Assembly (NCBI GenBank): GCA_041659785.1
Contig: JBAZXO010000003.1
Coordinates: forward strand, 1,099-65,098
Direction of reading: 5' to 3'
From: Minisyncoccota bacterium
GTDB taxonomy: Bacteria > Patescibacteriota > Minisyncoccia > Phycocordibacterales > UBA9973
DNA length: 64,000 nt
The notes beneath the pieces are model-generated. The model saw only the letters and a list, made by a program, of their open reading frames with translations. It was not told the DNA's origin and did not search any database. This document shows, piece by piece, positions 15,411-43,068 of this stretch. Positions within the stretch are counted from its first letter, which is position 1. The number at the start of each line of letters is the position of its first letter. Made by a program: the position numbers and the translations under genes.

Positions 15411-15476
15411 AATATTTTTTTAAAATTAATAAGATAACGACTATGTTAATTATATAGAGTTTAGCACAAAAAACAA

Positions 15477-17867: not shown

Positions 17868-17873
17868 TATCTA

Positions 17874-19881: not shown

Positions 19882-20699
19882 ATTAAAAATTCAATTACGT
19901 CGCCATCTTGTACGATATATTCTTTACCCTCAGTTCGGACCCAACCTTTTTCACGGGCTTTAGCGAAACTCCCTGCTTCAATCAACTGATCATATGATAC
20001 CACTTCTGCACGAATAAACTTCTGCTCGAAATCTGTATGTATCGAACGGCCAGCAAAAGGTGCTGTCGCCCCACGCAAAGTGGTCCAAGCCCTGGATTCA
20101 TCTTCGCCTGTCGTAAAAAAAGTAATCAAATTTAATAAATTATATCCGGCCTTAATAAGGTTATCTAAACCTGTACCAAAAATCGGATCAACTTCTAGGT
20201 ATGGCCCAGGGAGCTTAGATATGAAATCTTTTTTTACATTCTCTGCTGCTTCTGAAGTGTTTAAAACATAAAGCGTGGGTTTTTTAATTCCCGCTTGTTC
20301 TAATTCAAAATTTATAACCTCTATATCAAAAAGTGGATCAATATGATCGTGAACATGAATCATATCTTTATCTTCAAAAATTCGCACAACTTCGATAATC
20401 GCATCCACCTCACGTATATGTGAAAGAAATTTATTACCGAGTCCTGCCCCTGTAGATGCGCCCTTTACAAGCCCGGCGATATCTACAAACTCCACCACTG
20501 CTGGAATAGTTTTCTTTGATTTAGATATAGCAGATAATTTAAGAAGTCTATCATCTGGCACAGGTACGATACCGACAGAAGGATCAATAGTACAAAAAGG
20601 ATAATTCTCTGCCGGCACACCCTTCTTAGTAAGAGCATTAAAAAGCGTGGATTTTCCCACGTTTGGCAGACCTACGATTCCGATTGATAGTGAAGACAT
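19878..20699 (-). CDS. ychF: Obg-family ATPase YchF (short form)
   Basis: N-terminus IGIVGLPNVGKSTLFNALT (G1), DIAGLVKGAS (G3), C-terminal TGS-like DGDVIEFLI. 273 aa. Start overlaps the 3' end of the upstream recombinase ORF by about 60 nt. Confidence 0.8.
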   Translation of the reverse strand: MSSLSIGIVGLPNVGKSTLFNALTKKGVPAENYPFCTIDPSVGIVPVPDDRLLKLSAISKSKKTIPAVVEFVDIAGLVKGASTGAGLGNKFLSHIREVDAIIEVVRIFEDKDMIHVHDHIDPLFDIEVINFELEQAGIKKPTLYVLNTSEAAENVKKDFISKLPGPYLEVDPIFGTGLDNLIKAGYNLLNLITFFTTGEDESRAWTTLRGATAPFAGRSIHTDFEQKFIRAEVVSYDQLIEAGSFAKAREKGWVRTEGKEYIVQDGDVIEFLI

Positions 20700-22284
20700 T
20701 GATATTTGATTCTATTGGAATATATCCATAAACTTGTAATTTTTCCCTTGTTCCGACCACCCTATCTATAACTGTTCTGATTATGTCTTTTTTTGAGCTA
20801 AAGTTCAAGTTATTACTTAATGCTTTTGATACTTTTTGAGTGAAGGTTTTTATCTCAGATAATTTCGGTAGTGTTTTTTCTCCAATTTTCTGATTTTCTA
20901 AATCAGCATTAGCTATTTGATTTTCGAATAAAGATATCTTCTCTTTAACAGGAGCAAGATATTCTTTTAATTGTTCAATTGTAATTACACCAGAGCCATA
21001 AGCCTTAGCGTAACGACCTTCCTGGTCTTTAAGTTTAGATATTTCTTTTCTAGTCTCTTCTGTATTTATAACAGAAGTACAATTTCCATTATTTTGATTA
21101 TTGATCCAACGTTCCACTTGCTTGGTTAATAATTCTGGTGAACTCATAAGTTCTGTAGTTTTTTCCCACACTAACGGATCTAATATCTTGGCATTTAGGC
21201 CCTTCTCTTTACAACTAGGCTGTAAAGGAAAACTTTTTATTCTATCAGTGCAACGATAATACAAATGTTTACCACGCTGTGGTCCTTCCCCTGCTCGTCT
21301 TTTACCACAATTGCACCATATTTTACCAGCCAAAAGATACTCATTTTTAGTATTTCTTTCAGACATTTCAAAATTTGATCTTAATATCTGTCCGACTCTA
21401 TTAAATAATTCTTCATCTATAATTTTAGGAGTAGGGATTTTTATCCATTCACTTTCTGGTTTCATTCGTCTACTGGTTTTCTTAATTTTTTTATATCCCT
21501 CTTTCTTCGTTGGATTAACTGGTATCGTAGCGTAAGAAGCTCCATAATGGCCTTCACCTATATATGTCCTATTCCTTAATAACGTACTCAACGTGCTAGT
21601 GTTCCAAACACCTCTTTTACTTTTACGAGGAGGTATGCCTAACTCTTGAAGTCTTCTGACAATACCTCTTAATCTTAATCCATCATTATCTACCCAAGAA
21701 AAAATACTTTTTACAATTTGAGTTTCTCTTTCATTTATTTCATAGTGACCTTGAAGAAAATCGGCATCTCCTCTCTTCCCTTTCTTTACTATAAAATTAT
21801 ATCCGTAAGGAGCTTCACTAACAATGATATGTCCCTCTTTTGCCTTTCGTACTTTACCTAGTCTAAATCGTTCTTTTATTTTCATTCTTTCGTATTCAGT
21901 AAATACTCCTCTCATTTTATACATAATAATATCCTCGTCTGTTTTTGGTTGTGGAATCGTAACGAAAAGAACCTCAATTTCTAATTCTTTTAATTCCTCT
22001 ATCACCACTTCCTGCCATGCACCTCGTCTTGCTAATCTATCTGGATCATAAATTAAAACTGCGTTCCATTTTTTTAGTTTTGCATCCATGCGAAGTTGAT
22101 CTAATGCTGGACGTGCAAGAGAATCACCACTCCAACCATTATCAATATATTGCTTGACTATGATATAGCCATTCTTTTCAGCGAATTGATTAACAGCAGA
22201 AAGTTGCGTTTCAATAGTTCCCTCGTTTTCTTGGTTTGAAGTTGAAACTCTTCCGTATGTTGCGATTAATTTTATTTTTTCCAT
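20638..22284 (-). CDS. large serine recombinase (phage-integrase type)
   Basis: N-terminal resolvase catalytic domain with YGRVSTSNQ (catalytic Ser) and DRLAR. Recombinase domain, Cys-rich zinc ribbon (CNCGKRR...YYRCTDR) and C-terminal coiled coil. 548 aa. Confidence 0.9.
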   Translation of the reverse strand: MEKIKLIATYGRVSTSNQENEGTIETQLSAVNQFAEKNGYIIVKQYIDNGWSGDSLARPALDQLRMDAKLKKWNAVLIYDPDRLARRGAWQEVVIEELKELEIEVLFVTIPQPKTDEDIIMYKMRGVFTEYERMKIKERFRLGKVRKAKEGHIIVSEAPYGYNFIVKKGKRGDADFLQGHYEINERETQIVKSIFSWVDNDGLRLRGIVRRLQELGIPPRKSKRGVWNTSTLSTLLRNRTYIGEGHYGASYATIPVNPTKKEGYKKIKKTSRRMKPESEWIKIPTPKIIDEELFNRVGQILRSNFEMSERNTKNEYLLAGKIWCNCGKRRAGEGPQRGKHLYYRCTDRIKSFPLQPSCKEKGLNAKILDPLVWEKTTELMSSPELLTKQVERWINNQNNGNCTSVINTEETRKEISKLKDQEGRYAKAYGSGVITIEQLKEYLAPVKEKISLFENQIANADLENQKIGEKTLPKLSEIKTFTQKVSKALSNNLNFSSKKDIIRTVIDRVVGTREKLQVYGYIPIESNINVFTINRNRRSAKRGKIHAF

Positions 22285-22289
22285 ATTTT

Positions 22290-22481
22290 TTATTTAATTT
22301 TTATCACTTCTTCAAAAAGCAAATCAAATGCTTTATTAATTTTTTCTTCTGAAGAAACAATATAGTTGTAATCCAAAGAGGGACAACGAAGTGAGTTCTT
22401 ACTGCTACGCAAAAGCTCTCGTTGCCCCTCTTTAGGTTCAAGGTTTTTCTCACTTATTAAGCTTTGACGTAGCTCATTCAT
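22290..22481 (-). CDS. small hypothetical protein immediately upstream of recombinase (possible directionality factor; speculative)
   Basis: 63-aa ORF, 5 nt upstream of the recombinase start, same strand. Confidence 0.3.
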   Translation of the reverse strand: MNELRQSLISEKNLEPKEGQRELLRSSKNSLRCPSLDYNYIVSSEEKINKAFDLLFEEVIKIK

Positions 22482-22627
22482 TATAACATTCTTTGGCTAA
22501 TTTCTAATAATAATTTGACTCCTGACTAATTCTTCGTTCTTTTAGTGTTGGTACGAGTAATTGATTTTGAACCCTTGTAAAATATGGCTTATTTTAGGAC
22601 GGGTTTTACATAGAGGGACCCTGGGAC

Positions 22628-22876
22628 TTATATCGACAATATCTCAAGATCTCTTGCTGTGTATGGAGTATCAAGATTTTTGAATTCTCCTTTAGCAACC
22701 AATTTATTGATTGTTATTTGTCTTCTTTGAAATCTTTGGAAGGGCTTTCTCTTACAGATTCTTTCTCCTGGATACCAAACCACTTCAATCTTGAAGTTAG
22801 GATTTGGGTCGCCTGCACAAATTGGCGCTTCACAATTTAAGTTATGGTTAATTTCTCTCATGTTGTGTTCCCCCAA
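22628..22876 (-). CDS. hypothetical protein
   Basis: 82-aa ORF with a Cys-containing N-terminus. No family recognised. Confidence 0.3.
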   Translation of the reverse strand: MGEHNMREINHNLNCEAPICAGDPNPNFKIEVVWYPGERICKRKPFQRFQRRQITINKLVAKGEFKNLDTPYTARDLEILSI

Positions 22877-22918
22877 AAGGGGGAGTTAGTGGTTAATAAA
22901 TAATTCTTAACGTTTCTT

Positions 22919-23200
22919 CTACTTAACTTTTTTATTATGTTTCAAGAACTCTTCCTCGCTTGCGAAGAAAGTTTTAGTTACAAATGTTAAGTAATCTTTT
23001 GACAACCTAAAAGCAGCTTTCAAGTCTTTTTTATTAAACATGAGACGTTTTACTGCTTTGACGGTGTCTTTTGGTAAGATTAATTTTGATGATAGAGCTA
23101 ACATTAACCCTATTAAAATCTCTTCTTTTGAGAATCCATCTGCACAACCAAAGAGCTTTTCATCCATTTCAATTACTTTTATTTCTATTTCTTTTTTCAT
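22919..23200 (-). CDS. hypothetical protein
   Basis: 93-aa ORF, Lys-rich. No family recognised. Confidence 0.3.
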   Translation of the reverse strand: MKKEIEIKVIEMDEKLFGCADGFSKEEILIGLMLALSSKLILPKDTVKAVKRLMFNKKDLKAAFRLSKDYLTFVTKTFFASEEEFLKHNKKVK

Positions 23201-23369
23201 TGCATAATTTTTAATTATTTATAATCTGATGTTCGACTTTTAATTAACCATCATTAATCAGATAATATGAAAAATAGAAAGCTTAAAAAATCCTTAAAAA
23301 TAAAGGCAGGAAAGAAAAAAGCCCTCTAAAATAGAGAGTCTTACAGGTTATTCACAATTTTAAGTAAAG

Positions 23370-24065
23370 TTAAGCAGATTTAAGCTGTCGTGTTGTTTTG
23401 TTTTTTGTAATTAATTTAATTTGTATGTTCGGTACAATATATCCATCTTCTTCTCTTAAAATTTTCGTTACTTGAAATCCTTTCGTGTAGAGTGGATTTG
23501 TTTGTTGATAATTAAAATAATCATAAAGATTTTTATCAAAAGGCACTTCTTCTTTTTTAGCTAATTTATATATTAATCCCCACCTGTTATTTCTAGAAAG
23601 ATTCATTGGTTCGTCTTTATAATTACCATTTATGTAGATTTTAACTCTACCTCGTTCTGTCTCATCTTTAAGAACTTCAATTTTCTTTATGAAATTTCCA
23701 TTAGTAGCAGTACTACCTTTAACATCTAGTTTATCTTTTAGATATGTTTTTATAAGGTCGTCTGTAAAATCACAAAATACAGCGACATCATTGCTTGAAT
23801 ACGTACGACTATAATCAAAAGAATAACTGGGTTTATAATTTAACATATTATGTTTCCTGTAAAAGTCCTTATCGTTTATTACTTCATCAAGTATGGAAAA
23901 ACACTCAGCTTGATCGCTATCATCTAAGTGAGGTGCTACTTGAAGTTTGTCTAATTCAACCATGGAACAACTGCCTGAGTATGGTAAAGATACCTGCTCT
24001 TTTAAAATAGTTTGAAGAAGCCAGATTAATCTTTCATCATGATTTAGCCCTTGCATGATTAGCAT
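23370..24065 (-). CDS. hypothetical protein
   Basis: 231-aa ORF, island cargo. No family recognised. Confidence 0.4.
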   Translation of the reverse strand: MLIMQGLNHDERLIWLLQTILKEQVSLPYSGSCSMVELDKLQVAPHLDDSDQAECFSILDEVINDKDFYRKHNMLNYKPSYSFDYSRTYSSNDVAVFCDFTDDLIKTYLKDKLDVKGSTATNGNFIKKIEVLKDETERGRVKIYINGNYKDEPMNLSRNNRWGLIYKLAKKEEVPFDKNLYDYFNYQQTNPLYTKGFQVTKILREEDGYIVPNIQIKLITKNKTTRQLKSA

Positions 24066-24173
24066 AGTAAATAATATTATAGCAGATATTTACAGTATTA
24101 TTAATTTCTAGAAAATCCTTCGCCACACAGACAGCTTCAAAAAGAATTGAAAAAGTACTGTATTTGTCTAAGG

Positions 24174-24779
24174 CTATTGAGATTGATATTCTTTTATCAT
24201 TTCTATGGTTTTTTGTGCATCTCTTACTTGATTAAACAATCCCGATTGATTGCAGAGTTTCAAGAAACGTTGAAAGCGCTTGGTCCATTTAGATCTATAT
24301 AGAGGTCGTGGAATGCTTTCTCTCATATCAAGAAGGGCTAATCTCTTGCTTTGCTGGTAGAGCATTCTGCCATGGTCACTTCTGCTATTAATAGTAGTAG
24401 ATTTATAACGAAGACAATGGCATTTAAAACAGGCAAAGAACGTGCTTCCTGGGATGTTCTTGAGATATAAAGCATTGGTTTTATGTCCACAACCACAAGT
24501 TAAATAGGTTCTAGTGCCATAGGTTAATTCTCGTTCGAATAAAAGAATTTTTTGTGGTTCTCCGTTAAAATCAACGACAAGATAGGTGTTCCCATCACAA
24601 CTTTCCTCTGTGGAATAGAAAAGGACTGAGGGCTTACCATTATGTATAAAATTTAGGTATTCTCCCTGCACTACTTCTTTGTTTCTAGCTTTCTGTAGAT
24701 TCTTTCTCAATAGTTTTGTGCTTAACGCAAAACATGATTCTTTTAATATCTTCATTATTAAATGATAACAAAGTACCAA
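24174..24779 (-). CDS. hypothetical protein with Cys4 zinc-ribbon-like motif
   Basis: CGCGH...ACFKCHC cluster. 201 aa. Confidence 0.4.
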   Translation of the reverse strand: MVLCYHLIMKILKESCFALSTKLLRKNLQKARNKEVVQGEYLNFIHNGKPSVLFYSTEESCDGNTYLVVDFNGEPQKILLFERELTYGTRTYLTCGCGHKTNALYLKNIPGSTFFACFKCHCLRYKSTTINSRSDHGRMLYQQSKRLALLDMRESIPRPLYRSKWTKRFQRFLKLCNQSGLFNQVRDAQKTIEMIKEYQSQ

Positions 24780-24809
24780 AAACTATTGAGTTTAGTGAAA
24801 ATATTTTAT

Positions 24810-25757
24810 TTACTGCCAACAAATATCAGATTCCCCTCCTGTCGTTTCTTCTAAGTATTGTTCTACTTCACTAATCCCACCTATGGCATCAATTAAACCT
24901 AATTCTTTAGCTTTGGATCCTAGGACTGTTGAACCATCAGCAATGCTTCTAACTTTCTCTATGGGTATATTACGATTCTTAGATATCGCCTCAACAAAAT
25001 TGCCAAATACGATATTTACATCTCTTAGCATTAGTAGTCTTTCTTCGTTTGTAAGAGGTTTATCTGGGGATCCAGAATCCTTAAATTTACCTGAATTAAT
25101 TTCTTCAAAAATATATCCATCTTTCTTGTTCTTCTCAGCTACACTCACATAAGAGGCTGTTATACCAATAGCTCCTACATTAGAGTTTTTAGATGCGAAT
25201 ATCTTGTCAGCACTACTTATGGCCCAATAAGCGGAAGATGCCCCTACCTCTCTTATAAATGCCACGACAGGCTTCTCACTTCCCTTTATGGCATTAGCGA
25301 CCTCTTCACCTCCTGTCGGTGAACCCCCTCCTGAATCTACCTCAATTACAATTGCCTTTATTTTTTCATCCTCATTTGCTTGTTTAATTGCCCAAATAAT
25401 ATTTTGACTTGCTACTGTATTATAATCAAAAAGAGAGTCATTCTCACTGTGGTTTGGAATGTAAGTTAATAGCGTTCCGTGTAGTTCTATTCCCATGATA
25501 GAGCAATTATCATTTGTTGTGTCGCTAGAATCACTAATAGAAGAATCTGGGGATGAGTTATCTTTAAATGGGCCGACTATAAAAAGAGAATAAAAAAGAA
25601 TAGTAAATACGGTGACGATTAAGATAATTTTAACTATGCTTCCAATTAAATAGCCAAAGATATTAACATCACTCCATTTTCTAAAGCTTAACCATAATTC
25701 ATTTGTTTTGTTAAAAAGTTTTTTCATTTTTAAGTGCTTAGTTAAATAATAACACAT
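24810..25757 (-). CDS. sppA: signal peptide peptidase SppA-like (S49 family, 36K type)
   Basis: N-terminal TM anchor, then GGSPTGGEEVANAI...KPVVAFIREVGASSAYWAISSADKIFASKNSNVGAIGITASY matching S49 catalytic-region motifs. Confidence 0.65.
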   Translation of the reverse strand: MCYYLTKHLKMKKLFNKTNELWLSFRKWSDVNIFGYLIGSIVKIILIVTVFTILFYSLFIVGPFKDNSSPDSSISDSSDTTNDNCSIMGIELHGTLLTYIPNHSENDSLFDYNTVASQNIIWAIKQANEDEKIKAIVIEVDSGGGSPTGGEEVANAIKGSEKPVVAFIREVGASSAYWAISSADKIFASKNSNVGAIGITASYVSVAEKNKKDGYIFEEINSGKFKDSGSPDKPLTNEERLLMLRDVNIVFGNFVEAISKNRNIPIEKVRSIADGSTVLGSKAKELGLIDAIGGISEVEQYLEETTGGESDICWQ

Positions 25758-26177
25758 TTATTTATATCTCTTATAACATTCTTCTCTGTCTGTCTTTGCC
25801 TTAGCACGTATTTGGTCTGCCTCTATTTGTAGCTCTTGAAATGAAGGAGGCTTACAGTATTCTTGGAGTGTCATTTTGCCAGAAGTGATAAGATTATTTA
25901 CATTACTACCATGATCAGAATTAAGACAATCATTTTGTGATTCTGGTGAACTTAAATCTATGGCCAATTCACGATTCCTTTTTATTTCACTTTCAGCATT
26001 ATCGTTGATTTCATCAATACATTGATTCAATGGTTCCTTTGCCAGTTGATCCAACTGAGCCCTTTCTTCTAAAATTGCTTTCTCTTTATTTTCTTGAATA
26101 CTAGAAGAAATTATTTTATATCCGACTAAGGCAAGAAATACAACTCCTATTAAAACAATGATTTTTTTATTGTCCAT
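25758..26177 (-). CDS. membrane-anchored coiled-coil hypothetical protein
   Basis: 139 aa, N-terminal TM helix (IIVLIGVVFLALVGY), charged helical remainder with several Cys. Confidence 0.35.
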   Translation of the reverse strand: MDNKKIIVLIGVVFLALVGYKIISSSIQENKEKAILEERAQLDQLAKEPLNQCIDEINDNAESEIKRNRELAIDLSSPESQNDCLNSDHGSNVNNLITSGKMTLQEYCKPPSFQELQIEADQIRAKAKTDREECYKRYK

Positions 26178-26184
26178 AAAAATA

Positions 26185-26345
26185 AAAACTAGCTGATAAT
26201 AAGCTAGCGTAATGTTCTACTAGAAGCACAGAACACCATGCTAGCTGGACCTTTCGATCCCGTACCCTTTCGGATACGACCCAACGAAGAGTGCTAAACA
26301 TGGTGTTCAGTGACTTCGTTGGGTATTTTCGACCATATCCTAAAG
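26185..26345 (-). ncRNA. candidate structured RNA / 5'UTR element (GNRA-capped hairpins, 11-bp inverted repeat)
   Basis: Minus-strand reading shows CCCAACGAAG...CTTCGTTGGG (10-11 bp stem) and two adjacent GAAA-tetraloop hairpins (CGTATCC-GAAA-GGGTACG and GGATC-GAAA-GGTCC). No ORF. Lies 5' of the 25758-26177 gene in a 630-bp divergent spacer. Confidence 0.25.
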
Positions 26346-26810: not shown

Positions 26811-27137
26811 ATGAAAACATTAAGTATTAACGAAATCTTAGAAGATAATCCATTTACTTCTAATTACCAAGGTTCAACCAAAACAAAAGAAATGTTAGAA
26901 CAACAGATAAAAAAAATTTGGGGTGAACAAGAGGTAAAGAATTATAATCCATATAAAAATGCATTAACTTTTGCATCGTGGATTAAGTTAGGTTACCGTC
27001 CTAAAAAAGGAAGTAAGGCATTAAAAAGTATTACCTTTGTCGAACGCAAAAACGAGAAAGGAGAAGTCATTAGTAAATATCCACGCACGATAAATTTATT
27101 CTATTATAGGTCCGTGGAACCTATAGCTAACAATTAA
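26811..27137 (+). CDS. small protein with possible ArdC-N-like ssDNA-binding region
   Basis: 108 aa. NPYKNALTFASWIKLGYRPKKGSKALKSITF resembles the W.TF.QA..LG..V.KGEK motif of the ArdC N-terminal / DUF1738 family (from memory, weak). Confidence 0.3.
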   Translation: MKTLSINEILEDNPFTSNYQGSTKTKEMLEQQIKKIWGEQEVKNYNPYKNALTFASWIKLGYRPKKGSKALKSITFVERKNEKGEVISKYPRTINLFYYRSVEPIANN

Positions 27138-27141
27138 CATT

Positions 27142-27720
27142 ATGAACACATATAAAAACGAGGTCCCTTCTTACAAAAGAGAAAAAATAAATCCTATTCA
27201 AGAAGAGATAGCAAAGAATGTTGGAACTTATAATCTCACTGCGATTATTGAAGAAGACAAAGAAACAGTTTCAAAGCTTAAAAATATTCCAAATTTAATC
27301 TGCTTCCTTTGCACGTTAAAAATTGGAAATGAAATTATAGGGGTAGGTCGTGGTAGTGCAAACTTAAATCGTATGAACCGTGGAATAGAAAGAGGTGTGA
27401 GGTATAGTTTTGGCAATTCTATAGTTGATGCAGTTGTTAGGGGTATAAAAAATCTCGATGCTCTATATTTTAAAACAACAAATCAACCAGAAACTAAAAT
27501 TCAGAATGAAGTTGATCTTGAGGGTCGTGACAAACAATCATTCTTTAATGATGAGGACATGCCACAAGAAGCCACAGACAAACAGCGAAACTTTTTAACT
27601 AAGTTAGTTGAAAAATGTGATGAAGAAGATAAGGAAGAATATCTGGATGCCTTGGCCTCTCCGTACCTATCAAAATTTCAATGCAGTGAGCTTATCCAAA
27701 AGCTTATGCCAATGAAATAA
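27142..27720 (+). CDS. hypothetical protein
   Basis: 192-aa ORF with acidic C-terminus. No family recognised. Confidence 0.4.
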   Translation: MNTYKNEVPSYKREKINPIQEEIAKNVGTYNLTAIIEEDKETVSKLKNIPNLICFLCTLKIGNEIIGVGRGSANLNRMNRGIERGVRYSFGNSIVDAVVRGIKNLDALYFKTTNQPETKIQNEVDLEGRDKQSFFNDEDMPQEATDKQRNFLTKLVEKCDEEDKEEYLDALASPYLSKFQCSELIQKLMPMK

Positions 27721-27740
27721 TTATTAACTTAATATAAAAA

Positions 27741-27977
27741 ATGATTACAAATACAATATCAGCTTTTGAAGCACCTCGACAAAGGAGTAGCTTCTTTTTA
27801 GAGGATAGCGACGAGCCAGGGATGGCAACAAGCTACCAAAAAAGAACTATCTACCGTCTTCTGTGTGAAAGAATGGAAGATGGTCAAGGTAGAGAAGAAA
27901 ATATAAATCAAATTTCTTATGTTTCAGAAGATGAAGCCAGAAATTGGATTGCCGAATTGGAGAATTCAATTTGGTAG
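27741..27977 (+). CDS. hypothetical protein
   Basis: 78-aa ORF directly followed by a terminator hairpin. Confidence 0.3.
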   Translation: MITNTISAFEAPRQRSSFFLEDSDEPGMATSYQKRTIYRLLCERMEDGQGREENINQISYVSEDEARNWIAELENSIW

Positions 27978-27992
27978 AATATATAAACATTA

Positions 27993-28027
27993 AATGGTGA
28001 GGTCCTTTGGGCTTCACCATTTTTTGT
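27993..28027 (+). terminator. rho-independent terminator between convergent genes, possibly bidirectional
   Basis: aatggtga-ggtcctttgggct-tcaccatt stem-loop followed by TTTTTG. Sits between the + strand 27741-27977 ORF and the - strand gene ending at 28039. Confidence 0.55.
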
Positions 28028-28038
28028 GCTACTTTATA

Positions 28039-29391: not shown

Positions 29392-30500
29392 AGTTTTAAA
29401 ACTTTGCGAATCTTTAACGCAATAGATTGTGCTAATAATGGAGGTACTGAATTTCCAATTTGTATACCAACTGAACCCCTACTACCATAAAAGACAAAAT
29501 CATCATCAAAAGATTGTATCCGAGCTGCTTCACGGGGTGTTAGCGCTCGATGTTGTAGTGGATGAGTTACACGACCCACAGAAGGAGTATCGAATCTTGT
29601 GGTTATTGTATATGCAGGTTTGTTCCTGTTAATTCTTCCGAATGCCCCACTGTGTATAGATTTTGTTTGTAGTGCTAATGGTAAACTTGACCTTCCTTCA
29701 CCTTCTTTAATGCTTTTAAGTATCTTAATTATTCTAGGGTCATGTTTAGTCGCTTGGTGGTTATATATCTTTTTACTTTTTCCACGTCTTTCTTTTTGAT
29801 ATTGAGTAAGATTTTTATTAAAAGCATACTCAGATTCAAACTGTCCTGAGCCTGCTGATACCTTTGGTAAATCTAAAATCGTTTCTGCCACAGTTACGTA
29901 TGGTCTTTGTTTTTGAGGACCATGTGTCTTGTCTGGAAAAAAATCTTCAGGATCTATACCTATCCTATTACCTATAAACACTGCCCTTCTTCTTAATTGA
30001 GGAACACCATAATCTGCAGCAAGTAAAACATGAACCTTGGTTTCATATCCAATTTCTTTAAACTTTTTTATTATTTCATTTTTTACAGCTCCTCCGTGGA
30101 TATTTAGCATTGCTGCTACATTTTCCATAACAAATATTTTGGGCTTAACGTCTTTTACTACACGAATAAATTCCTTAAAAAGTTCATTGCGTGGATCATT
30201 TAAAAACGCACCATCATTACGTATTCTGCGACCTGCCATACTAAAACCCTGGCAAGGTGGCCCCCCAACAACAACACAAATATCTTTTTCTCCATTTAGT
30301 AATTCTTTTGAATCTACTTTAGTTATGTCTTCAACGATCATTTTTGTTCCAGGATGATTTTTTATGTAGGTATTAGCAATTTCTGCATTATATTCATTCG
30401 CAGACACTACATCAAAACCAGCCTTCTTAAAACCCACAGAAATACCACCCACTCCTGCGAATAAATCTATTATTTTTAGTTTACTTTTCTTGCCAGCCAT
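29388..30500 (-). CDS. DNA (cytosine-5)-methyltransferase
   Basis: Motif I DLFAGVGGISVGF, motif IV GGPPCQGFS, motif VI ENV, motif X QIGNSVPPLLA. 370 aa. TGA stop. Confidence 0.9.
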   Translation of the reverse strand: MAGKKSKLKIIDLFAGVGGISVGFKKAGFDVVSANEYNAEIANTYIKNHPGTKMIVEDITKVDSKELLNGEKDICVVVGGPPCQGFSMAGRRIRNDGAFLNDPRNELFKEFIRVVKDVKPKIFVMENVAAMLNIHGGAVKNEIIKKFKEIGYETKVHVLLAADYGVPQLRRRAVFIGNRIGIDPEDFFPDKTHGPQKQRPYVTVAETILDLPKVSAGSGQFESEYAFNKNLTQYQKERRGKSKKIYNHQATKHDPRIIKILKSIKEGEGRSSLPLALQTKSIHSGAFGRINRNKPAYTITTRFDTPSVGRVTHPLQHRALTPREAARIQSFDDDFVFYGSRGSVGIQIGNSVPPLLAQSIALKIRKVLKL

Positions 30501-32070
30501 ACTCTTGTAATTTATTTTTTTTATAATTAAAGTTGTTTTTTAATAAGTTTTCTATATTTGTAACTTCACCTTCTTTGTTAGTATACAAATTATTTTCCAC
30601 AATGAAAGGTATTAGTTTCTCATATAAAGAATCAGAAGTCAGATAACCATTATTTTTTTCTATCCAAGATTGAACCTTTCTTACAATATTCTTTTCACCA
30701 TCCTCGTTGTTTAACTTCTTTTCCTTAGCTTTTACTTTCGTATCTTTTATAAAATTATAAACAAAATCACCCCTCAATGTATTGTTTCTATTGAGTCCCT
30801 GCGTACCAGAGGCAACAGCCTGTTCTTGATAAACAACGTTTATAAGATGAAAACCAGCACTAGTCACAGCATCCATTACAGCCTTCCAAATATTTAGATT
30901 TCTATTGTGGAAAGTAAATGAGAGATACTTTTCATCCTTTAAAACTCTATATAATTCAGCATAGACCTTTTTCATTCTTGATGAATAATCTTCGTATTTT
31001 TTATTACGATACGGATCATATATAATTTCACTTTCATAATTTACTTTATTTCTAAGCCACCCATTCCAAAACATACTTAACCCTAAATAAGCAATACTAT
31101 CACCGTAGGGTGGATCAGTAAATATATATGAAACAGATTCTGATTTAATATTTTTTAGATTAGTAGCATCAATATTAAAGATTTGAGCATCCTTTGAGTT
31201 AAATATTCCTGCTACTTCTTGTTTGCCTTTTTTGATTTTATGGAATCGATGCTTAAAACTATTAAAAATATTTTTTTCTGTATGAATTTTTGGAGCCCAT
31301 AATTTACTAATAACCCACCCCGACTTGCCATTAACTGATTCGGGATTACCAGGTATCATTTTAGAAACGTTTGGCAACATGGAAGTAAAACATAAAAGTA
31401 TTAGATTTTTAACTTTTTGGTCCTTAATTTCATCTATGTCTTTAATTATTGAACCAAGCACCACTAATGCACGATCTGTAAAAAATTCATTCAGCTTACT
31501 TTTCCCATTTCTCTTAACAAATTTTAAAATTTCGTCTTTCGGATAGAAGATTTTATTTTCCTTATCTAATTTATGGAAAACCTCTGTTGCTTTTTTAAAA
31601 ACTTTCTGGTCATACGAGTCTACATTTTTTATGAACTTACCACAGCTATGGCATAATGCTCTAATTTTCGAGAATTCTTCGTGATCCCAAATTGAATTTT
31701 CAAAGGCTGTAATTCCACCACACTTAGGACATTTAGTATTATATAATTCAATAAACTTTTTATAGTTCTTTTCGTATATATAATCAAATGCTTTTTCAAA
31801 TTCTTCTAAGTTAACGTTATTTATTGTATTTTCAGTAATAAAACAAGCCATAGGATTTAAATCTATTCCTATCGCCTTACGATTATTTTTAATTGATTCA
31901 ATAATAACGACCCCACTTCCCATAAAGGGATCAAGAACCGTTTCCCCTGGCTTTGAAAAATTCAAAATATAGTCACTCACTACATTGTGTGGTTTTCTCC
32001 CCCAATACTTATGCATCATGTAGTGAGTTGGGTGAGTTTTTGCGGTAATGTTTTTATTTATTTTATTCAT
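30481..32070 (-). CDS. amino-DNA methyltransferase (N6-adenine type, DPPY; alpha-like motif order) with zinc-ribbon insert
   Basis: N-terminal FMGSGVVIIE (AdoMet motif I) and later IFTDPPYG (motif IV). CPKCGG...CHSCGK zinc ribbon. Overlaps the C5-MTase start by 20 nt. Confidence 0.8.
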   Translation of the reverse strand: MNKINKNITAKTHPTHYMMHKYWGRKPHNVVSDYILNFSKPGETVLDPFMGSGVVIIESIKNNRKAIGIDLNPMACFITENTINNVNLEEFEKAFDYIYEKNYKKFIELYNTKCPKCGGITAFENSIWDHEEFSKIRALCHSCGKFIKNVDSYDQKVFKKATEVFHKLDKENKIFYPKDEILKFVKRNGKSKLNEFFTDRALVVLGSIIKDIDEIKDQKVKNLILLCFTSMLPNVSKMIPGNPESVNGKSGWVISKLWAPKIHTEKNIFNSFKHRFHKIKKGKQEVAGIFNSKDAQIFNIDATNLKNIKSESVSYIFTDPPYGDSIAYLGLSMFWNGWLRNKVNYESEIIYDPYRNKKYEDYSSRMKKVYAELYRVLKDEKYLSFTFHNRNLNIWKAVMDAVTSAGFHLINVVYQEQAVASGTQGLNRNNTLRGDFVYNFIKDTKVKAKEKKLNNEDGEKNIVRKVQSWIEKNNGYLTSDSLYEKLIPFIVENNLYTNKEGEVTNIENLLKNNFNYKKNKLQEYGWQEK

Positions 32071-32131
32071 ACGAATTAAACGTCATAATATTTGTTATCA
32101 CACAATAGATAAAAAATTGATTCAATATCAA

Positions 32132-34606
32132 TTACCGCCCTTGTTCATGATAACTTAAAATATCCTTATCTGAGTATAACATATTTAAATACAATTCTGG
32201 AGCATTTTCTGTATACATAATGAGTTTTCCTGAATAATAAAGCTCCTTAAACTTTTTCACCCTTTCCCTAACTTCAGTTATATATTCTGGCCTAATTTTT
32301 ATGCCGTTTTTGTCTTTTTCGAGATATTTATTGTAATGAACAATCCCATAAAATCTTGGATCAATATGATTCTTTGTTTCAAGAAGTTTTTGTATCTGAT
32401 GTCTTTCTTCGTCTTCTCTAAATCGTAATATTCTTTCTACAACCTCCTTTGATTCAGTGTGCTCTTTTGTGATTGCTAAAAAAGTATTAAATTCAAATTT
32501 GCTAATAAATGGGTCCGAACCATAATCATCTAGTAATTGTATTAAAACATCATATATAAATAAAAATGGATAGATTTTAAAATCTTTAAAAGAAACACGT
32601 TTTGTTGATTCAATATATTTATTATAAGAACCATAAATTGGATTCCAATATAATATTTTTTCAAGTTGTAAAGTAAGAATGTCTTGATAAATATCCACAT
32701 TTGAGAAATCTTTTGTCTTTTTACAAATTTCTTCAAATGAAATTGTCGGTTTGAGTGGAGATTCAGCTGATATAAAACCACTGATCTTGCTTAACATTAA
32801 AGCACGGAAACCTGCTGTCATATTTTTACCAGGATATTTATCATTAACAATCTTTTGTATTTTTTTTATAAATTCTTTTTCATCTATATTTGGATTATCT
32901 TTGATAATTTTAATCCCCTCAAAGTTAACTTGAAAATACTGATTCTGTTGCCCACGTTTCCAATATAAATTATCTTTTGTCCACTTGTCTAAGTATATTG
33001 AATACTCTCTCCATTCTTTTGCAATTACGTCATTTCTTATATCTTTCGAATATACAACTTCATTGCTTTTGAATATCTCAACAACTTCAGCATCAAAAAT
33101 AACTTCACATCCATTTAAGTCATAGATAAAAAGATCTTTTCCATCTTTATGGATTTTTTTAAGTCCTCTAACCCCATTTTTTATATCAAGTCCTTCAAGA
33201 ATTAAATTTGCAGTACGATAATTCCCTATGAAATCAAGAATCAAAACATTTTCTTTTTTAGGAGCAACACGTAAACCACGACCCATATGTTGAATAAATA
33301 TTGTTTTTGATTCTGTGGGCCTTAAAAATAACAAACAAGAAACATCAGGAATATCGACACCTTCGTTGAACATATCTACAACAAAAGCCACCTGACATTT
33401 ACCATCTCTAAAGTGTTTTATTAATAAAGTTTTATCTTTATCTTCAACTCCTTCAAGCCCTAGGCTACGAGAATGTACGGCAATCGCATTAATACCTGCA
33501 GATTTAAATTTAGTAGCACATCTTTCAGCATGTTCTATGGATGCACAAAAACCTATAGTTTTTCTATCACCAACAACTTCTTTAAATTTTTTTAAAATAG
33601 CTTGATCTCTTTCATCAATCAAAAGATGCTTATTAAGGTCCTTAGTATCATACTTAAATCCATTAAAATATATGTCGGAATAATCAATACTATCTTTAAA
33701 TCAAAAATATTGGAAAGGTACTAAATAACCTTGCTCTATGGCCTGTTCCTGCCCCATCTCAAATACAACATTGTTGTTATAAAATCCTAATATATCTTTT
33801 CGATCCATTCGATCTGGTGTTGCTGTTAATCCTAGAAAAAATTTCGGTTTAAAATAAGAAAATATTAATCCATAGGTAGGTGCAGCAGTATGATGTGTCT
33901 CGTCTATAATTATATAATCGAAATAGTCTGGAGAAAAACTTTCAATATGTTTCTTTTTACCTAATGTTTGTATAGACGCAAATAATATTTTTTTATCTTT
34001 CTCTTTCTGTTTTCCATTATAAAAACCAAGGTCATTTTTTCTACCAGGAAAGACTCGCTCGAATGATTCTTTGGTTTGCTTAAGAATTTCATTAATATGA
34101 ACAACAAAAAGTATTTTCGAGGCTTTAGTGTCTTTTGCATCTAAAGCAGACAATATTGTTTTACCTAAACCTGTTGCAAGTATTACGACAGCCCTATCTG
34201 ATCCGTTTTCCCTTGTTGTATTAAGATTAACAAGTGCCTTTTCTTGAGCTTCGTGTGGTTTAATTTCTTTTCCTCTCTTTAGATAAAGATTAAAAAGTTC
34301 TTCGTCTGCTATAAATTGTCTTCGTAAAAAGTATTTTACTTTTTCTCTATCTTTTGTAATCAAGTCACTACCAATAGTTATTGTTTTAAGTAATAATTGA
34401 TTTGTACTTACTAACTGGCTAGTTCCCTCTTTACTTTCATTGAAATTTATTAAATAACTAGCATAATCTGTTTTTATCTCTAACAGAGCAACATCACCAT
34501 CGGTGATGTTTGTAATGTGTTTTTTAAAATTTGTACTTAAATCATCAAAAAGAATCTCGAGGAGATTTTTTAAATCTATATTTTTAATATCAGAAAGTAA
34601 ATTCAT
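32132..34606 (-). pseudogene. SF2 DEAH-type helicase/restriction-subunit-like gene split by a single in-frame TGA (N-half 33701-34606, C-half 32132-33622)
   Basis: N-half: ILATGLGKT (motif I), IIDETHH (motif II), LGLTATP (motif III). C-half: FNEGVDIPDV (motif V), QHMGRGLR (motif VI). Both halves share one reading frame, separated only by TGA at 33701-33703, then 26 sense codons to a TTG start. Confidence 0.65.
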
Positions 34607-34609
34607 GGA

Positions 34610-36802
34610 TTATTTATTATCCAGGGTCTCACTAGCAAAAATTGCAGTGTGCATATTTTTAGGAGTAAGAATTACTGGCCACCAGAATGGTGAACCCATC
34701 CAGCCTTGTTCTTCTTTGCCATTTACTCTAATTAACATTAATACTGGAATGTCATCTGCTATCCTTTTAGCAATAGTAAGGGCCACTTCTCCAGTACCAG
34801 ATCCAGCATCGTCTGTAAATCTGCCATCTGATTTACAACGAGATAAATTACTATCAGTTCTCACCACAACTCCAACTTTTCCGTTTTGTGAAATACTGAC
34901 CGAGTTTTTTGATAAATGTTCTATACTTGCTTTAAAAGCCTTAACATCCCATTCATACCCATTTTGTTCAGAAATAAAAGTCTTTTTTATTTTATCTAAA
35001 ATAGAAAGGGATTGCTCAACTGGAATTAAAAAATGATCTGATGTTGTTTCAGCTTGTAACCCTAAAATTTCTTTATCTAAATCCTCTATATCTTTTTTTA
35101 TGTTACTTTTATAACCCGTCTGGAAACCAATAGGTAAAAGTCTTTTGTGGGGTTTAAGAGTAGTTATACTAGAAAGCATTATTTTGTTAGGCGAACAAGG
35201 TACAAGTTTATCACTCGTGTCTTTGCGTATAAAATAAATACCATTATTATGTGAACCATTTAGAAAAGCCTCCCTTAATGCATTATCAAATTCATGTATG
35301 CGTTTCATTACTTCATAGATACTACGAGTCGTATATAAACGAGTTACTGCTAAGTCCTCTTTAGATCTAGCACCATACATGCGACAGTGCTGTAAGACAG
35401 TGTCTTGCTGAAATTTTTTAGGATTTCTACCATAGTAAAAACCTATCATGTTTTTAATCGTAATCCCACGATCCAAAATTTGACCTCCTATAAAAATATT
35501 TAGTGGAGTTCTTAATCTAAGCTGTCCCTTGCTGTCCAAGAGCGCTTTTACATCTTTATCTGAATTAACTTTTTCTACTACAAGCATCCCTTTTGTTAAA
35601 ACATCTGATACTTCATGCAAAACAACAGAAAAAATTGGTAACTGCAACCCAGAAAGTTCCACAGATGGTTTTAAATCATTGTATGCTTCCTCAACTAGAA
35701 CATTAAATAATGCTTGGTCCTCTTTTGCAATCCTAACTAGTTCTTCGTTAAGTTTATTCACAACTTCTTCTTGCCAATTATGAGAATTTCTAGATTGTTC
35801 AGTGTGAATTAGAAAACTATAATTTTCTTGTTTTTCTCCTTTATTTTCTTGCTGAATGCGACGTATACTACCACCAACAATAAAATTCATTATTGAATTT
35901 CTAATTGTTCTTGTAGATGGACTTGTAAAAACTTCTTCTATCTTGAAAGATCTACGATCGGCCCTTTTAAGAGTCTTCCTTACTTTCAAAATTTCTAATT
36001 CCTCAATTGGAACCTCTTTGTAAACATGAAATGCTGTCGTTCCCTCTTCCTCGCTTTCAATAAAATAGTAATCACCTCCCACATAATCTTTATGGATAGG
36101 AACTAACACAGTGAAAGCTGGTCGTTTGGGTAAAAAAAGTGATTCTGAATCTTCGCTATCATCCGATTGTAAATATAACGAATATGGTGTTGCTGTGACT
36201 TGTAATAAATCTGATTGTTTAACCGTGTTTCGTATATCGTCTATTTGTTGAGCAATTTTTCCTTGTTCAATTGAACCACTTTCTTTTTCTTTATGAAAGC
36301 TAATGCTTGCAAAATCTGCTTCGTCGTCAATTATGAGAATCTTTTTATTTTTTAAATCAGGATAAGTGGTAGTAAGTGTGCTTAACACATGTCTAAGATT
36401 ATTAGTTTCTTTCTTTGCAACAATAATCAACTTTTGACTTAACTCATATGGCACCATATTTTTAGGGAAAAGCATGATGTCATGTATTTGAACTTTACTA
36501 TCCTCCTCGAATACCTGAAAATCCTCATGTAATCTTTTTAATGTCTGTTCAGTAAGTGGCTTAGTACCTTTTGTAAGTATTATCGTAATATCGTAATCAT
36601 TATCAAATGCCAAAGCCATTACACCCAAAAAAGCACGAGTTTTTCCACTCTGCACCTTACCAAGTAAAATACCAGGCTTTTTCAAGTTTGTGTCAGAATC
36701 AATCAGTTTAACAACAGTTTCTTCTATACAACTTTTTAAAGAGTCATCATCTTTTCGTTTATTGGTTAGAGTATTATAAAAATATCCTTTTTTCATATTC
36801 AT
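34610..36802 (-). CDS. P-loop SF2-like NTPase resembling Z1-domain proteins (first gene of RM-like operon)
   Basis: 730 aa. LLGKVQSGKT Walker A near the N-terminus, LIIDDEADFAS (DEAD-like Walker B), LLQVTATP (motif III), C-terminal LQHCRMYGAR (motif VI-like Q..R..G.R). Z1 assignment is from memory of the GxVQSGKT signature. Confidence 0.5.
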   Translation of the reverse strand: MNMKKGYFYNTLTNKRKDDDSLKSCIEETVVKLIDSDTNLKKPGILLGKVQSGKTRAFLGVMALAFDNDYDITIILTKGTKPLTEQTLKRLHEDFQVFEEDSKVQIHDIMLFPKNMVPYELSQKLIIVAKKETNNLRHVLSTLTTTYPDLKNKKILIIDDEADFASISFHKEKESGSIEQGKIAQQIDDIRNTVKQSDLLQVTATPYSLYLQSDDSEDSESLFLPKRPAFTVLVPIHKDYVGGDYYFIESEEEGTTAFHVYKEVPIEELEILKVRKTLKRADRRSFKIEEVFTSPSTRTIRNSIMNFIVGGSIRRIQQENKGEKQENYSFLIHTEQSRNSHNWQEEVVNKLNEELVRIAKEDQALFNVLVEEAYNDLKPSVELSGLQLPIFSVVLHEVSDVLTKGMLVVEKVNSDKDVKALLDSKGQLRLRTPLNIFIGGQILDRGITIKNMIGFYYGRNPKKFQQDTVLQHCRMYGARSKEDLAVTRLYTTRSIYEVMKRIHEFDNALREAFLNGSHNNGIYFIRKDTSDKLVPCSPNKIMLSSITTLKPHKRLLPIGFQTGYKSNIKKDIEDLDKEILGLQAETTSDHFLIPVEQSLSILDKIKKTFISEQNGYEWDVKAFKASIEHLSKNSVSISQNGKVGVVVRTDSNLSRCKSDGRFTDDAGSGTGEVALTIAKRIADDIPVLMLIRVNGKEEQGWMGSPFWWPVILTPKNMHTAIFASETLDNK

Positions 36803-37718
36803 ATCATAATTAATTAAATCTCAATACTAACTAAGATTTTTATATTTCAAAACACTCTAAAAAGTATAGCACTTTCAGCTTAATTTTTAAAGGGTTTTTA
36901 GGTAAATTTCGAAATAGACATTTAATAGAACTGTAGTAAAACTAATTTGTTTTTATTTATTTTTTATGTTATAATATATTCATACGATTGAAAAAGTTAG
37001 CTGTTAAAAGACAACAAACTTCACCCCCGAGCATAAAGATTTAAGATATAAGGTTAAGTTGAGTTATGTATAAAGATTTAAGATTAAAGATAAAGTTATG
37101 TTATGGAAAACATTAACAAATCTTTGTTTTTGGGGAACTCAAATAAAAAAAACTCCAATAAAACCTTGTATTACGATTGATATCCGAATATGAGGCAAAC
37201 CACTAATGAGAGATTCAGGTGTTGATGAAAGAGAGCTGGGAAAATGGTGTTCGACTTCCACCCAGCCTTGTGATCAGCATCGGAGTCTCACTGATTGATA
37301 TAGGAATAATTAAGTAAAGTAACGACATATCACCGATATTACTTTATGAAGGGGGTTCGCTATTTAAATCACACTGTTAATTGCATATCTATTATTTTTG
37401 AGCAAATTTTATTTAACACCTATACGTATTATAAATATTCTAAGTTACGGTGTTTCGAATAACGAGAAGCTAAAAAACACATCCAAATCTCTATCAAGGG
37501 GTAAGTCGAGCTCGTACCCTAAAGAGTATTTATTTAGCTCGCCTAAACCCATAATCAACCCCACTCTTTAATGGAGGTGGTATTTTAATAGTAAACTCAA
37601 AAGGAATAAATTTATCAGTTATAGAATGTCGTGGTGTGCCTGCTCCATTCCAATTGATAGTGACATAAGAAAACTGTAGCAAATTACAAGCTAAAAATAA
37701 AGAATATATTTAAAAAAT

Positions 37719-43032: not shown

Positions 43033-43068
43033 TTTTTAAATTTAATAAAATTAATTAATAATAAGTGA

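Follow-up and report, generated by a model that had tools for sequence, protein, structure and literature searches.

The DNA analysed here is a 64-kb stretch, referred to below as the window, which comes from an uncultured Patescibacteria (Nomurabacteria-like) bacterium. Its most conspicuous feature is a gene for a large serine recombinase (LSR) whose 3′ end overlaps the beginning of ychF by 62 nt (~20.7 codons) in a different frame, in agreement with the ~20 codons given in a preliminary description of this sequence. The genes and features of the locus are the following:

19878..20699, minus strand: ychF, the target gene, 273 aa (Pfam MMR_HSR1, from residue 6, and YchF-GTPase_C)
20638..22284, minus strand: LSR gene, integrated form, 548 aa (Pfam; PHROG phrog_95; tail comparison with homologues)
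20677..20693, minus strand: LSR-proximal junction core (P arm – GG – B′ arm), TCACTATCAATCGGAAT (17-mer search)
22290..22481, minus strand: gene for a 63-aa protein, lying 5 nt upstream of the LSR gene (by tblastn, conserved in 18 loci of the family)
22628..24779, minus strand: four genes of 82, 93, 231 and 201 aa (no Pfam, PHROG or NCBIfam match)
24810..25757, minus strand: S49 (SppA/head-maturation-protease-like) peptidase, 315 aa (PF01343, E = 3e-33; phrog_53, E = 6.5e-43)
25758..26177, minus strand: 139-aa protein (only a weak Rz-like spanin match, E = 3e-5)
26811..27977, plus strand: divergently transcribed module of 108-, 192- and 78-aa genes (tblastn)
28039..29391, minus strand: NOV_C (PD-T4-1/PDC-S36-like) protein, 450 aa (PF13020, E = 5e-15; PADLOC matches)
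29388..32070, minus strand: C5-cytosine (370 aa) and N6/N4 (529 aa) DNA methyltransferases (PF00145, E = 1.5e-75; PF01555, E = 1.5e-21; PADLOC MTase_II)
32132..34606, minus strand: ResIII helicase/Helicase_C/AlwI-like nuclease gene (Pfam; PADLOC mREase_IV halves)
34610..36802, minus strand: Z1-domain helicase-like protein, 730 aa, first gene of the defence cluster (PF10593, E = 9e-24; PADLOC Helicase_II, E = 4e-66)
36803..37529, no strand: non-coding element region, 727 bp (no ORF above 57 aa; no Rfam match)
37530..37650, minus strand: displaced 3′ end of the LSR gene (motif search, sequence, 574-aa reconstruction, same tail in intact homologues)
37647..37663, minus strand: distal junction core (B arm – GG – P′ arm), TCACTATCAATTGGAAT (sequence; 17-mer search)
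37664..37718, minus strand: native ychF start codon (37664–37666) and its 52-nt upstream region (37667–37718) (sequence)

The recombinase has the Resolvase (PF00239, E = 6.5e-28, residues 8–152), Recombinase (PF07508, E = 3.4e-19) and Zn_ribbon_recom (PF13408, 26.9 bits versus a cutoff of 25.3) domains of Pfam. R12 and S14 of its YGRVSTSNQ motif are invariant in sets of 24 and 50 homologues, and four cysteines (C324, C326, C345 and C358) are invariant as well. Among solved structures, the best sequence match spans the catalytic domain of the TP901-1 integrase only. The 63-aa protein encoded next to the LSR matches no family in Pfam, PHROGs or NCBIfam; a HTH_17 protein holds its position in other subgroups (alignment A2), and by this position it is a candidate excision (directionality) factor.

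The cargo is made up of a restriction-modification-like cluster (28039–36802) and genes without assigned function. Homologues of the 82-, 231- and 201-aa genes occur in other elements of the family (L081, L105, L164, L168 and L174); none was found for the 93-aa gene. The S49 peptidase is also present in L164 and L112, the 108/192/78-aa module in L081 and its first two genes in L164 and L174. The ResIII/AlwI-like gene is broken by one in-frame stop at 33701–33703, as read from its translation. Genes without a family, the SppA-like peptidase and a restriction-modification-like operon had all been anticipated in the preliminary description. Its call of an ArdC-like protein is weak, since the ArdcN match of the 108-aa protein (26811–27137; E = 0.007) reaches 17.0 bits versus a cutoff of 22.6. 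No recognisable replication gene was found in the window element; relatives carry primase-helicases.

The 0.9-kb AT-rich spacer at the far end (36803–37718) does measure 916 bp with a GC content of 30.4%, and includes two 37-nt tandem repeats (37033–37106) in its non-coding part. It is nonetheless not an empty spacer: the native ychF start lies in it, and so do the distal attachment junction and the 3′ end that was displaced from the LSR gene. A compositional deviation was borne out only modestly: the element has 31.7% GC, the left flank 38.7% and the right flank 34.6%, and its right boundary is not marked by GC because the adjoining host two-component genes are equally AT-rich (31.5%). Promoter and terminator scans remained at background level.

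Junctions, target site and the split recombinase gene

The region very probably represents a 16,970-bp integrative element (~20,681–37,650) that was inserted into codon 7 of ychF by its own LSR. Both ends carry a 17-bp direct repeat, TCACTATCAAT[C/T]GGAAT, with no other copy in the window. Allowing up to two mismatches, the proximal 17-mer is found twice in the window (20677–20693 and 37647–37663), with zero copies expected from 100 shuffles. Comparison of junctions shows the predicted crossover to lie at a GG dinucleotide, positions 20680–20681 at the proximal and 37650–37651 at the distal junction. It is pinned by the related element L175, whose two junctions have only GG in common, and it fits four other copies. 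This GG supplies bases 1–2 of the Gly codon of YchF ‘...I-G-IVGLPNVGKS’ and, read in the recombinase frame, bases 2–3 of Arg535. Judged by such comparison only, the att sites are short, with a 17-bp imperfect repeat here and GG alone shared in L175.

Joining the two junctions yields an in-frame LSR of 574 aa and an attB that encodes MSLSIGIVGLPNVGK, identical to the YchF N-terminus of L001, the closest genome without the element. The predicted attP junction reads ...ACTATCAATCGGAATGGAGCAGGC... (in longer form ...CTTCACTATCAATCGGAATGGAGCAGGCACACC...) and the predicted empty attB junction ...ATGTCACTATCAATTGGAATCGTAGG... (in longer form ...TTCTTATGTCACTATCAATTGGAATCGTAGGTCTGCC...). Ungapped scoring of the window for inverted or direct copies of the proximal junction gave nothing above background. 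The distal site was reached only via the protein tail motif of the LSR. An element end at 27,987, where the similarity to the L081 element stops, was rejected after the LSR tail had been found at 37.6 kb.

Of the integrated recombinase, residues 1–536 are native and residues 537–548 (RRSAKRGKIHAF) correspond to ychF codons read in another frame. The displaced fragment at the distal end continues after the crossover codon as NGAGTPRHSITDKFIPFEFTIKIPPPLKSGVDYGFRRAK followed by a stop, accounting for native residues 536–574. It carries the motif IPFEFTIKIPPPLKSGVDYGF and is in frame with 22284–20681, the part lost on integration being residues 537–574 (38 codons). The reconstruction shows that the predicted attP sits within the coding sequence of the recombinase, towards its 3′ end, so that integration strips a conserved 38-residue C-terminal tail from the enzyme. 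At the level of sequence, the recombinase trades this tail for 12 residues that come from ychF in another frame, and the tail persists as an apparently silent in-frame fragment at the far end of the element. Excision would re-join the displaced fragment to restore the 574-aa enzyme. The ~50-bp attP does not extend to the tail motif IPFxFxIxLPPP, which is conserved among LSRs only 53–73% identical; eight of 37 intact tails end in -AA. An AlphaFold2 model of the intact homologue P0013 has long helices over residues 365–504 ahead of the last strands, a disordered linker (525–544) and then a β-strand at 547–555 with a pLDDT of up to ~80.

In the target gene, the six initial codons plus the first two bases of the seventh (20681–20699) are derived from the element, whose arm imitates a ychF start (ATG TCT TCA CTA TCA ATC GG). 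Owing to this start mimic YchF is kept intact after the insertion, beginning with MSSLSIG... instead of MSLSIG..., while the native start and upstream region are now 17 kb away from the gene. An in-frame ATG is present 18 or 24 nt before the GG in 49 of 53 distinct occupied junctions; in empty Patescibacteria sites it is found 15 nt before the GG in 31 of 40 cases and 12 nt before it in five of 40. Occupied ychF would be expressed from signals on the element side or via read-through from the recombinase gene. Part of the target is the DNA coding for the YchF P-loop (IGIVGLPNVGKS), which is conserved across the bacterial phyla sampled. An exact-sequence look-up of YchF matched no record.

Relatives, mobility and other readings of the region

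A near-identical copy of the element resides in a different host, L081, where a LSR 98% identical to that of the window stands beside a YchF of 330 aa that is only 57% identical. The DNA of the two is 97–100% identical (about 98%) down to position 20677 and 65–80% identical from there on. As far as sequence identity can show it, the element thus moves between hosts. With junctions defined to the base and the same element in a second host, the earlier suggestion that the region is an integrative element whose integrase lies right at its attachment junction is supported, and the extent then proposed (~20.6–37.7 kb) was essentially right. It had missed the position of the junction at codon 7 within ychF, the other half of the recombinase gene in the spacer and the start codon that ychF receives from the element. 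In the comparison with element-free relatives that had been recommended, the reconstructed attB matches L001 in the N-terminus that it encodes, and neither L001 (YchF 91% identical) nor L002 has a LSR. The genes upstream of ychF in L001 differ from those of the window. More widely, in ~40 representative genomes of Patescibacteria, those whose YchF is most similar, the LSR is missing except for a decayed remnant in L003. The sole other contig with a response regulator identical to the one adjacent to the element (1 kb) carries the occupied allele, so that no empty site of the same host was found.

The same arrangement is seen throughout a LSR family, for which over 1,000 homologues pass E ≤ 1e-20; identities among the top 120 range from 57 to 98%. 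The LSR is fused to ychF in 51 of 80 metagenomic family loci. An adjacent ychF was not detected in 21 further loci, and in the 19 of these that were examined the LSR ORF extends to a longer C-terminus, in which the IPFxFxI motif is usually present. Approximately 24 of the top 120 database homologues are intact and most others appear ychF-fused by eye, a pattern match flagging only 37. Displaced LSR tails were found 7–11 kb upstream of the LSR in L148, L159, L168 and L175. One contig of 15,290 bp (L102), whose ends overlap by 127 bp and whose LSR of 569 aa is intact and 73% identical to that of the window, is read as the circular free form of a related element; such a form was seen for this relative only and not for the element of the window. 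Intact family members also exist within very long contigs (L161, 933 kb; P0116, 2.25 Mb), and the split-on-integration model alone does not explain these.

Similarity to the L081 element, both at the DNA and the protein level, ends at ~27,987, just past the 78-aa gene, and L081 and L082 have other defence-like genes at this place (ResIII plus DUF2726 or PDDEXK). One could therefore imagine two islands, with a recombinase element ending at ~28.0 kb and the restriction-modification cluster (28.0–36.8 kb) being a separate host defence island. We consider this very unlikely. At 37.5–37.7 kb one finds the displaced LSR tail together with the 17-bp repeat and the native ychF start, which places the cluster inside the recombination unit. 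Moreover, L081 and L082 share 85% identity in the ResIII gene at this position and ~75% in their ychF regions, so that the stretch would move along with the elements and serve as a variable cargo slot. Possibly the cluster entered the element as a nested secondary insertion.

The preliminary description had also considered a degenerate prophage, that is, the remnant of a temperate phage without structural genes. The match of the S49 peptidase to a head-maturation protease family (phrog_53, see above) would fit such an origin, as would the weak spanin-like match of the 139-aa protein and the assignment of the LSR to the phage integrase family phrog_95. However, searches of Pfam, PHROGs and NCBIfam gave no capsid, portal, terminase, tail or lysin match for any island ORF. 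In IMG/VR, searched with the single LSR and with a LSR alignment, no relative exceeds 32% LSR identity, and none is above ~31% in PLSDB plasmids and GenBank phages. Related elements have primase-helicase or RepB/AAA_25-type replication genes along with cargo of the toxin or defence type, and virion genes are absent from them. A prophage origin is thus very improbable. Relaxase, coupling-protein and type IV secretion genes are absent from the window island, in which the ArdC-N match stays below threshold; coupling-protein-like genes occur in the distant family members L161 and L115, and a full ArdC in L161. From its gene content, we conclude that the element is neither a prophage nor a conjugative element.

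That the recombinase might be a domesticated, immobile host gene always found upstream of ychF can be dismissed almost entirely: the LSR–ychF overlap is indeed present in most family members, and in L099 the LSR and the host genes diverge similarly at the DNA level, but the breakpoint in identity right at the junction refutes conserved host synteny, and the absence of the LSR from genomes with the most similar YchF, the disparity between LSR and YchF identity in L081, the intact LSR forms (one on a contig read as circular) and a cargo that varies between element copies all speak against it.

Comparison with known systems and a possible switch

The LSRs of phages phiC31, Bxb1, A118 and TP901-1 consist of a resolvase domain, a recombinase domain and a zinc ribbon with a coiled-coil insertion. 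Their att sites are short, with a 2-bp non-palindromic crossover and little identity between attP and attB, the integrase gene adjoins attP, and excision is controlled by a separate directionality factor. The present element resembles these in enzyme architecture, in att sites of this kind and in having the integrase next to attP, and likewise targets a protein-coding gene. It differs in that attP lies within the recombinase coding region and a 38-residue tail is removed. Among cultured plasmids and phages, the closest LSRs are less than 32% identical to that of the window.

An attP within the integrase gene is known from the SSV1-type integrases of archaeal viruses, which are tyrosine recombinases that target tRNA genes, and integration consequently splits the gene between the ends of the element (PMC8371274). 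The split of the recombinase gene described here is similar by analogy, not by membership, since it concerns a serine recombinase of a bacterial non-viral element with a protein-coding target and only a short C-terminal tail is detached. In mycobacteriophages such as BPs, attP is located inside the repressor gene, at its 3′ end, and integration alters the C-terminus of the repressor, which loses a ssrA-like degradation tag; the integrase, a tyrosine recombinase targeting a tRNA gene, carries such a tag too (Broussard et al. 2013; PMC9262239). The likeness to this integration-dependent immunity consists in a protein that is C-terminally altered by integration; in our case the split gene is that of the recombinase and no repressor is involved.

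LSR-encoding pipolins have been described to integrate at ychF in Gram-positive bacteria; in the part of that preprint available, the site is deduced from gene context only, and neither an exact site nor a split recombinase is mentioned (bioRxiv 10.1101/2024.05.22.595293). Pipolins share with the present element the LSR, the carriage of defence genes and ychF as integration site, and differ in host phylum and in having a family B DNA polymerase, the pipolin hallmark. No such polymerase (piPolB) was found in any scanned island ORF of at least 60 aa. Our literature search found no paper describing, for serine recombinases, a layout with attP in the LSR gene, a start mimic and a detached tail.

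The exchange of C-terminal tails might constitute a built-in state switch of the recombinase, an idea we put forward tentatively and regard as rather doubtful. In the free element, a full-length LSR would be made whose tail (the β-strand IPFxFxIxLPPP, often with a ssrA-like -AA end) could set stability or integration preference. The integrated element would produce a tail-less LSR with a different stability or directionality, such that the activity or stability of the enzyme would change between the free and the integrated state. If this were true, integration itself would reprogramme the recombinase, making it the serine-recombinase counterpart of integration-dependent immunity, and the switch would be used by a large Patescibacteria-specific family whose target is the beginning of ychF, where the P-loop is encoded.

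The mobile elements of the Candidate Phyla Radiation have been characterised poorly, and few genetic tools exist for these bacteria. A base-resolved att site, together with a contig read as a free circle, provides concrete substrates for an integration system in Patescibacteria, and since the P-loop DNA is conserved across the sampled phyla, tests of host range and off-target use are feasible. The layout is compact, with attP inside the LSR gene, a start mimic that preserves the target gene and a conserved tail that is shed on integration. The element also shows that a defence cluster can travel within such an element in Patescibacteria, where relatives hold different defence-like genes at the same position, and a multi-gene restriction-modification-like cargo of this kind would benefit the host.

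The recombinase–ychF overlap and the limits of the element

The genes of this region lie on the minus strand, the two of immediate concern being:

20638-22284, minus: large serine recombinase (LSR) ORF, 548 aa, with Resolvase, Recombinase and Zn_ribbon_recom domains and a match to the phage integrase family phrog_95
19878-20699, minus: ychF ORF, encoding a 273-aa YchF

Since the GTPase domain of YchF begins at residue 6, position 20699 marks the true start codon. The ORFs share 62 nt, read in different frames, as the preliminary description had claimed for the 3′ end of the recombinase gene and the start of ychF. The recombinase is a bona fide LSR.

A metagenome scan with the LSR-family alignment returned 80 loci, in 51 of which ychF is fused to the LSR 3′ end; eight are cut by a contig end and 21 have no detected adjacent ychF. 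In the 19 of these 21 that were examined, the LSR ORF continues for ~20-95 residues, mostly ~25-50, usually with the conserved motif IPFxFxIxLPPP, which is followed by L(K/Q)(S/R)G(V/I)DYGF in about half of 37 aligned tails. The window contains a single copy of this tail motif, on the minus strand (...YVTINW NGAGTPRHSITDKFIPFEFTIKIPPPLKSGVDYGFRRAK stop, ending at 37530), in a stretch previously taken for a gene-free spacer. It is indeed a spacer but not an empty one, because the displaced LSR tail and the original ychF start are found inside it. Directly upstream of the tail stands ATG TCA CTA TCA ATT GG, separated by a 52-nt spacer from the response-regulator gene, and on sequence grounds this is the original start of ychF. 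Both junctions have in common the 17-mer TCACTATCAAT[C/T]GGAAT, of which the window holds no further copy at up to 2 mismatches, with none expected by chance. Joining the junctions gives an in-frame 574-aa LSR and the empty host site attB, ATGTCACTATCAATTGGAATCGTAGGTCTGCCAAACGTGGG, coding for MSLSIGIVGLPNVGK, exactly the YchF N-terminus of the Candidatus Nomurabacteria genome L001. As the junctions join cleanly, the element measures 16,970 bp, from 20,681 to 37,650; with both junctions found, the island boundaries proposed earlier prove right.

Displaced tails also occur 7-11 kb upstream of the LSR in four other integrated copies (L148, L159, L168 and L175). The junctions of L175 (ATT-GG-TAT versus ATC-GG-AAT) have only GG in common; in the window, L148 and L159 the two junctions disagree at the base left of GG, and in L168 at the base right of it. 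A crossover at GG is consistent with all five copies. In ychF this GG makes up bases 1 and 2 of the Gly codon before IVGLPNVGKS, so that the host-side arm is P-loop-coding DNA, which is conserved across diverse bacterial phyla (78 ychF loci compared).

Consequences of integration for ychF and the recombinase

An in-frame ATG lies 18 or 24 nt before GG in 49 of 53 distinct occupied junctions, giving MSSLSIG or MSSxKLxIG, whereas in empty Patescibacteria sites it is found at 15 nt (31/40) or 12 nt (5/40), mostly giving MSLSIG. In the occupied state ychF therefore has its start codon and first codons from the element. The YchF of the window gains one serine through the insertion.

The integrated LSR keeps residues 1-536, while native residues 537-574 are swapped for 12 residues, RRSAKRGKIHAF, derived from ychF in another frame. 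Database searches gave more than 1,000 LSR homologues, the best 120 being 57-98% identical; judged by eye, most of these 120 have ychF-derived tail ends and ~24 have an intact tail. For the intact homologue P0013, an AlphaFold2 model (50-sequence alignment, mean pLDDT 75.8) predicts a disordered linker at 525-544, encoded by attP, the element's own site, and a beta-strand at 547-555, with a pLDDT of up to ~80 in the 551-560 block. The tail motif lies outside the ~50 bp expected for attP and is nevertheless conserved in proteins only 53-73% identical, from which we infer conservation at the protein level and a function. The activity of the truncated LSR, the role of the tail and the expression of ychF in the occupied state are likewise matters that we infer. 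Eight of 37 intact tails end in -AA (KAA, RAA, MAA, EAA or AAA; P0038, P0044, P0045, P0059, P0082, P0108, L154 and L171), like ssrA-type degradation tags and far above the expectation from residue frequencies; the tail of the window LSR ends in RRAK.

Host, movement and free form

Species-representative genomes were scanned with YchF, which places the host among the Patescibacteria. L001 has the closest YchF (91% identical), followed by L002 (78%). In neither genome does a recombinase gene precede ychF, and their similarity to the window ends at the ychF start codon. L001 and the window have in common the genes downstream of ychF and an ABC-transporter block (window 46.9-52.7 kb), with four unrelated genes lying between the two in L001. 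L001 shows absence of the element, yet it is not a clean empty site; an empty allele of the window's own strain was not found. YchF has 272-273 aa in the host lineage (window 19878-20699; L001 9998-10816) versus 330-371 aa in relatives, the ~57 missing middle residues being a helical insertion between the G-domain halves (alignment gap against L081 11586-12578).

Two further loci concern the site itself. In L099 (559-2938), a close host relative with a 95% identical YchF and the same downstream genes, it holds a different family member (LSR 77% identical); in this lineage, occupation of the ychF site is either of independent origin or of long standing. In the Patescibacteria locus L003 (9734-10065), the ychF start has occupied-type spacing (ATG 24 nt before GG), and immediately upstream of the gene is a decayed LSR C-terminal remnant, 39-42% identical to residues 440-548, which appears to be the fossil of an old insertion.

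Named LSR homologues are mostly from Patescibacteria. Locus L081 has a 98% identical LSR at the same position, overlapping a 330-aa YchF only 57% identical to that of the window. The DNA of the two is 97-100% identical from 22480 down to 20677 and 65-80% identical beyond. This breakpoint is 23 nt inside ychF, which places one junction within the first ychF codons, and it proves horizontal movement of the element.

L102, a complete 15,290-bp contig with a 127-bp terminal overlap, can be read as a circle. Its LSR is intact (569 aa, 73% identical), and its sequence ...ATGTCTTCACTATCAATCGGCATGGAGTGAAC... matches the reconstructed attP of the window element; its other genes encode an RHS toxin, an AAA_25/RepB-primase-like protein and a KAP NTPase. 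The circular reading is limited to this relative, no circle of the exact window element having been found. In other integrated relatives there is a Prim-Pol/D5 primase-helicase or an AAA_25 ATPase; in L086 a tyrosine integrase adjoins the LSR, and metal-resistance genes further upstream are putative members of the element.

More distant members with 53-56% identity have an intact LSR in chromosome-sized or long contigs. Its neighbours in L161 (933-kb contig, 6441-21231) are a full ArdC, a coupling-protein-like ATPase, a SNF2 helicase, a methyltransferase and a ResIII/TnsA-like protein; L115 encodes an RHS protein as well as a coupling-protein-like ATPase. Of the 80 metagenomic contigs (L098-L177), about 20 stop no more than ~200 bp from where the LSR match ends, three of them being cut inside the LSR gene. 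Such a pattern is expected if assemblies break at places where occupied sites coexist with empty ones, or where one element is present in several hosts.

Cargo and relation to known systems

Besides the LSR gene, the window element carries:

5 nt upstream of the LSR gene: 63-aa gene, conserved in 18 loci, by position a candidate directionality factor
beyond it: four genes with no assigned role, three of which recur in other family elements
S49 peptidase gene and gene for a 139-aa protein
divergent module of 108-, 192- and 78-aa genes
defence cluster: NOV_C protein, C5 and N6/N4 methyltransferases, helicase-nuclease with one in-frame stop, Z1-domain helicase

The window and L081 are similar as far as 27,987, past which L081 and L082 have other defence-like genes; the stretch from the 78-aa gene to the tail is therefore a variable cargo slot. 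The in-frame stop (33701-33703) divides a ResIII/Helicase_C/AlwI-like gene into two ORFs of 301 and 496 aa that share one frame; recent mutational inactivation, a sequencing error and a tolerated split are all possible explanations. The non-coding DNA that separates the LSR tail from the Z1 gene contains two 37-nt repeats in tandem (37033-37106, 81% identical), to which a replication or regulatory protein could bind. Nested inverted repeats at 26202-26324, in a 630-bp divergent intergenic region, have arms of 17 nt (82% complementarity), 14 nt (93%) and 11 nt (100%) and may represent a structured RNA or operator region. Outside the element, the window has a 2,484-aa ORF (4041-11495) and two large surface-type proteins of 574 and 1,248 aa with Ig-like and InlB B-repeat domains (41308-46815), the longer with a C-terminal dockerin; such large surface-type proteins seem unusual for a small-genome bacterium.

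The island had been thought to be an integrative element or a degenerate prophage. The first of these holds: the island is an integrative element with defence genes, not a prophage. No replication, conjugation or virion genes were recognised in it. A preprint reports ychF, by gene context only, as integration site of LSR-bearing pipolins (bioRxiv 10.1101/2024.05.22.595293); these have piPolB, which the window element lacks. The hallmark of the SSV1-type tyrosine integrases of archaeal viruses is that attP splits the recombinase gene in which it lies (PMC8371274); the window LSR has the same arrangement but is a serine recombinase. It also resembles mycobacteriophage repressors, in which attP lies inside the gene and integration yields a C-terminally altered product (PMC9262239). 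In the literature we found no description of either arrangement for serine recombinases, nor of this LSR family in Patescibacteria, and among cultured plasmids and phages even the nearest LSR is <32% identical. The element shows an undescribed layout of a known mechanism, and its family looks like one of small integrative, plasmid-like elements with variable cargo.
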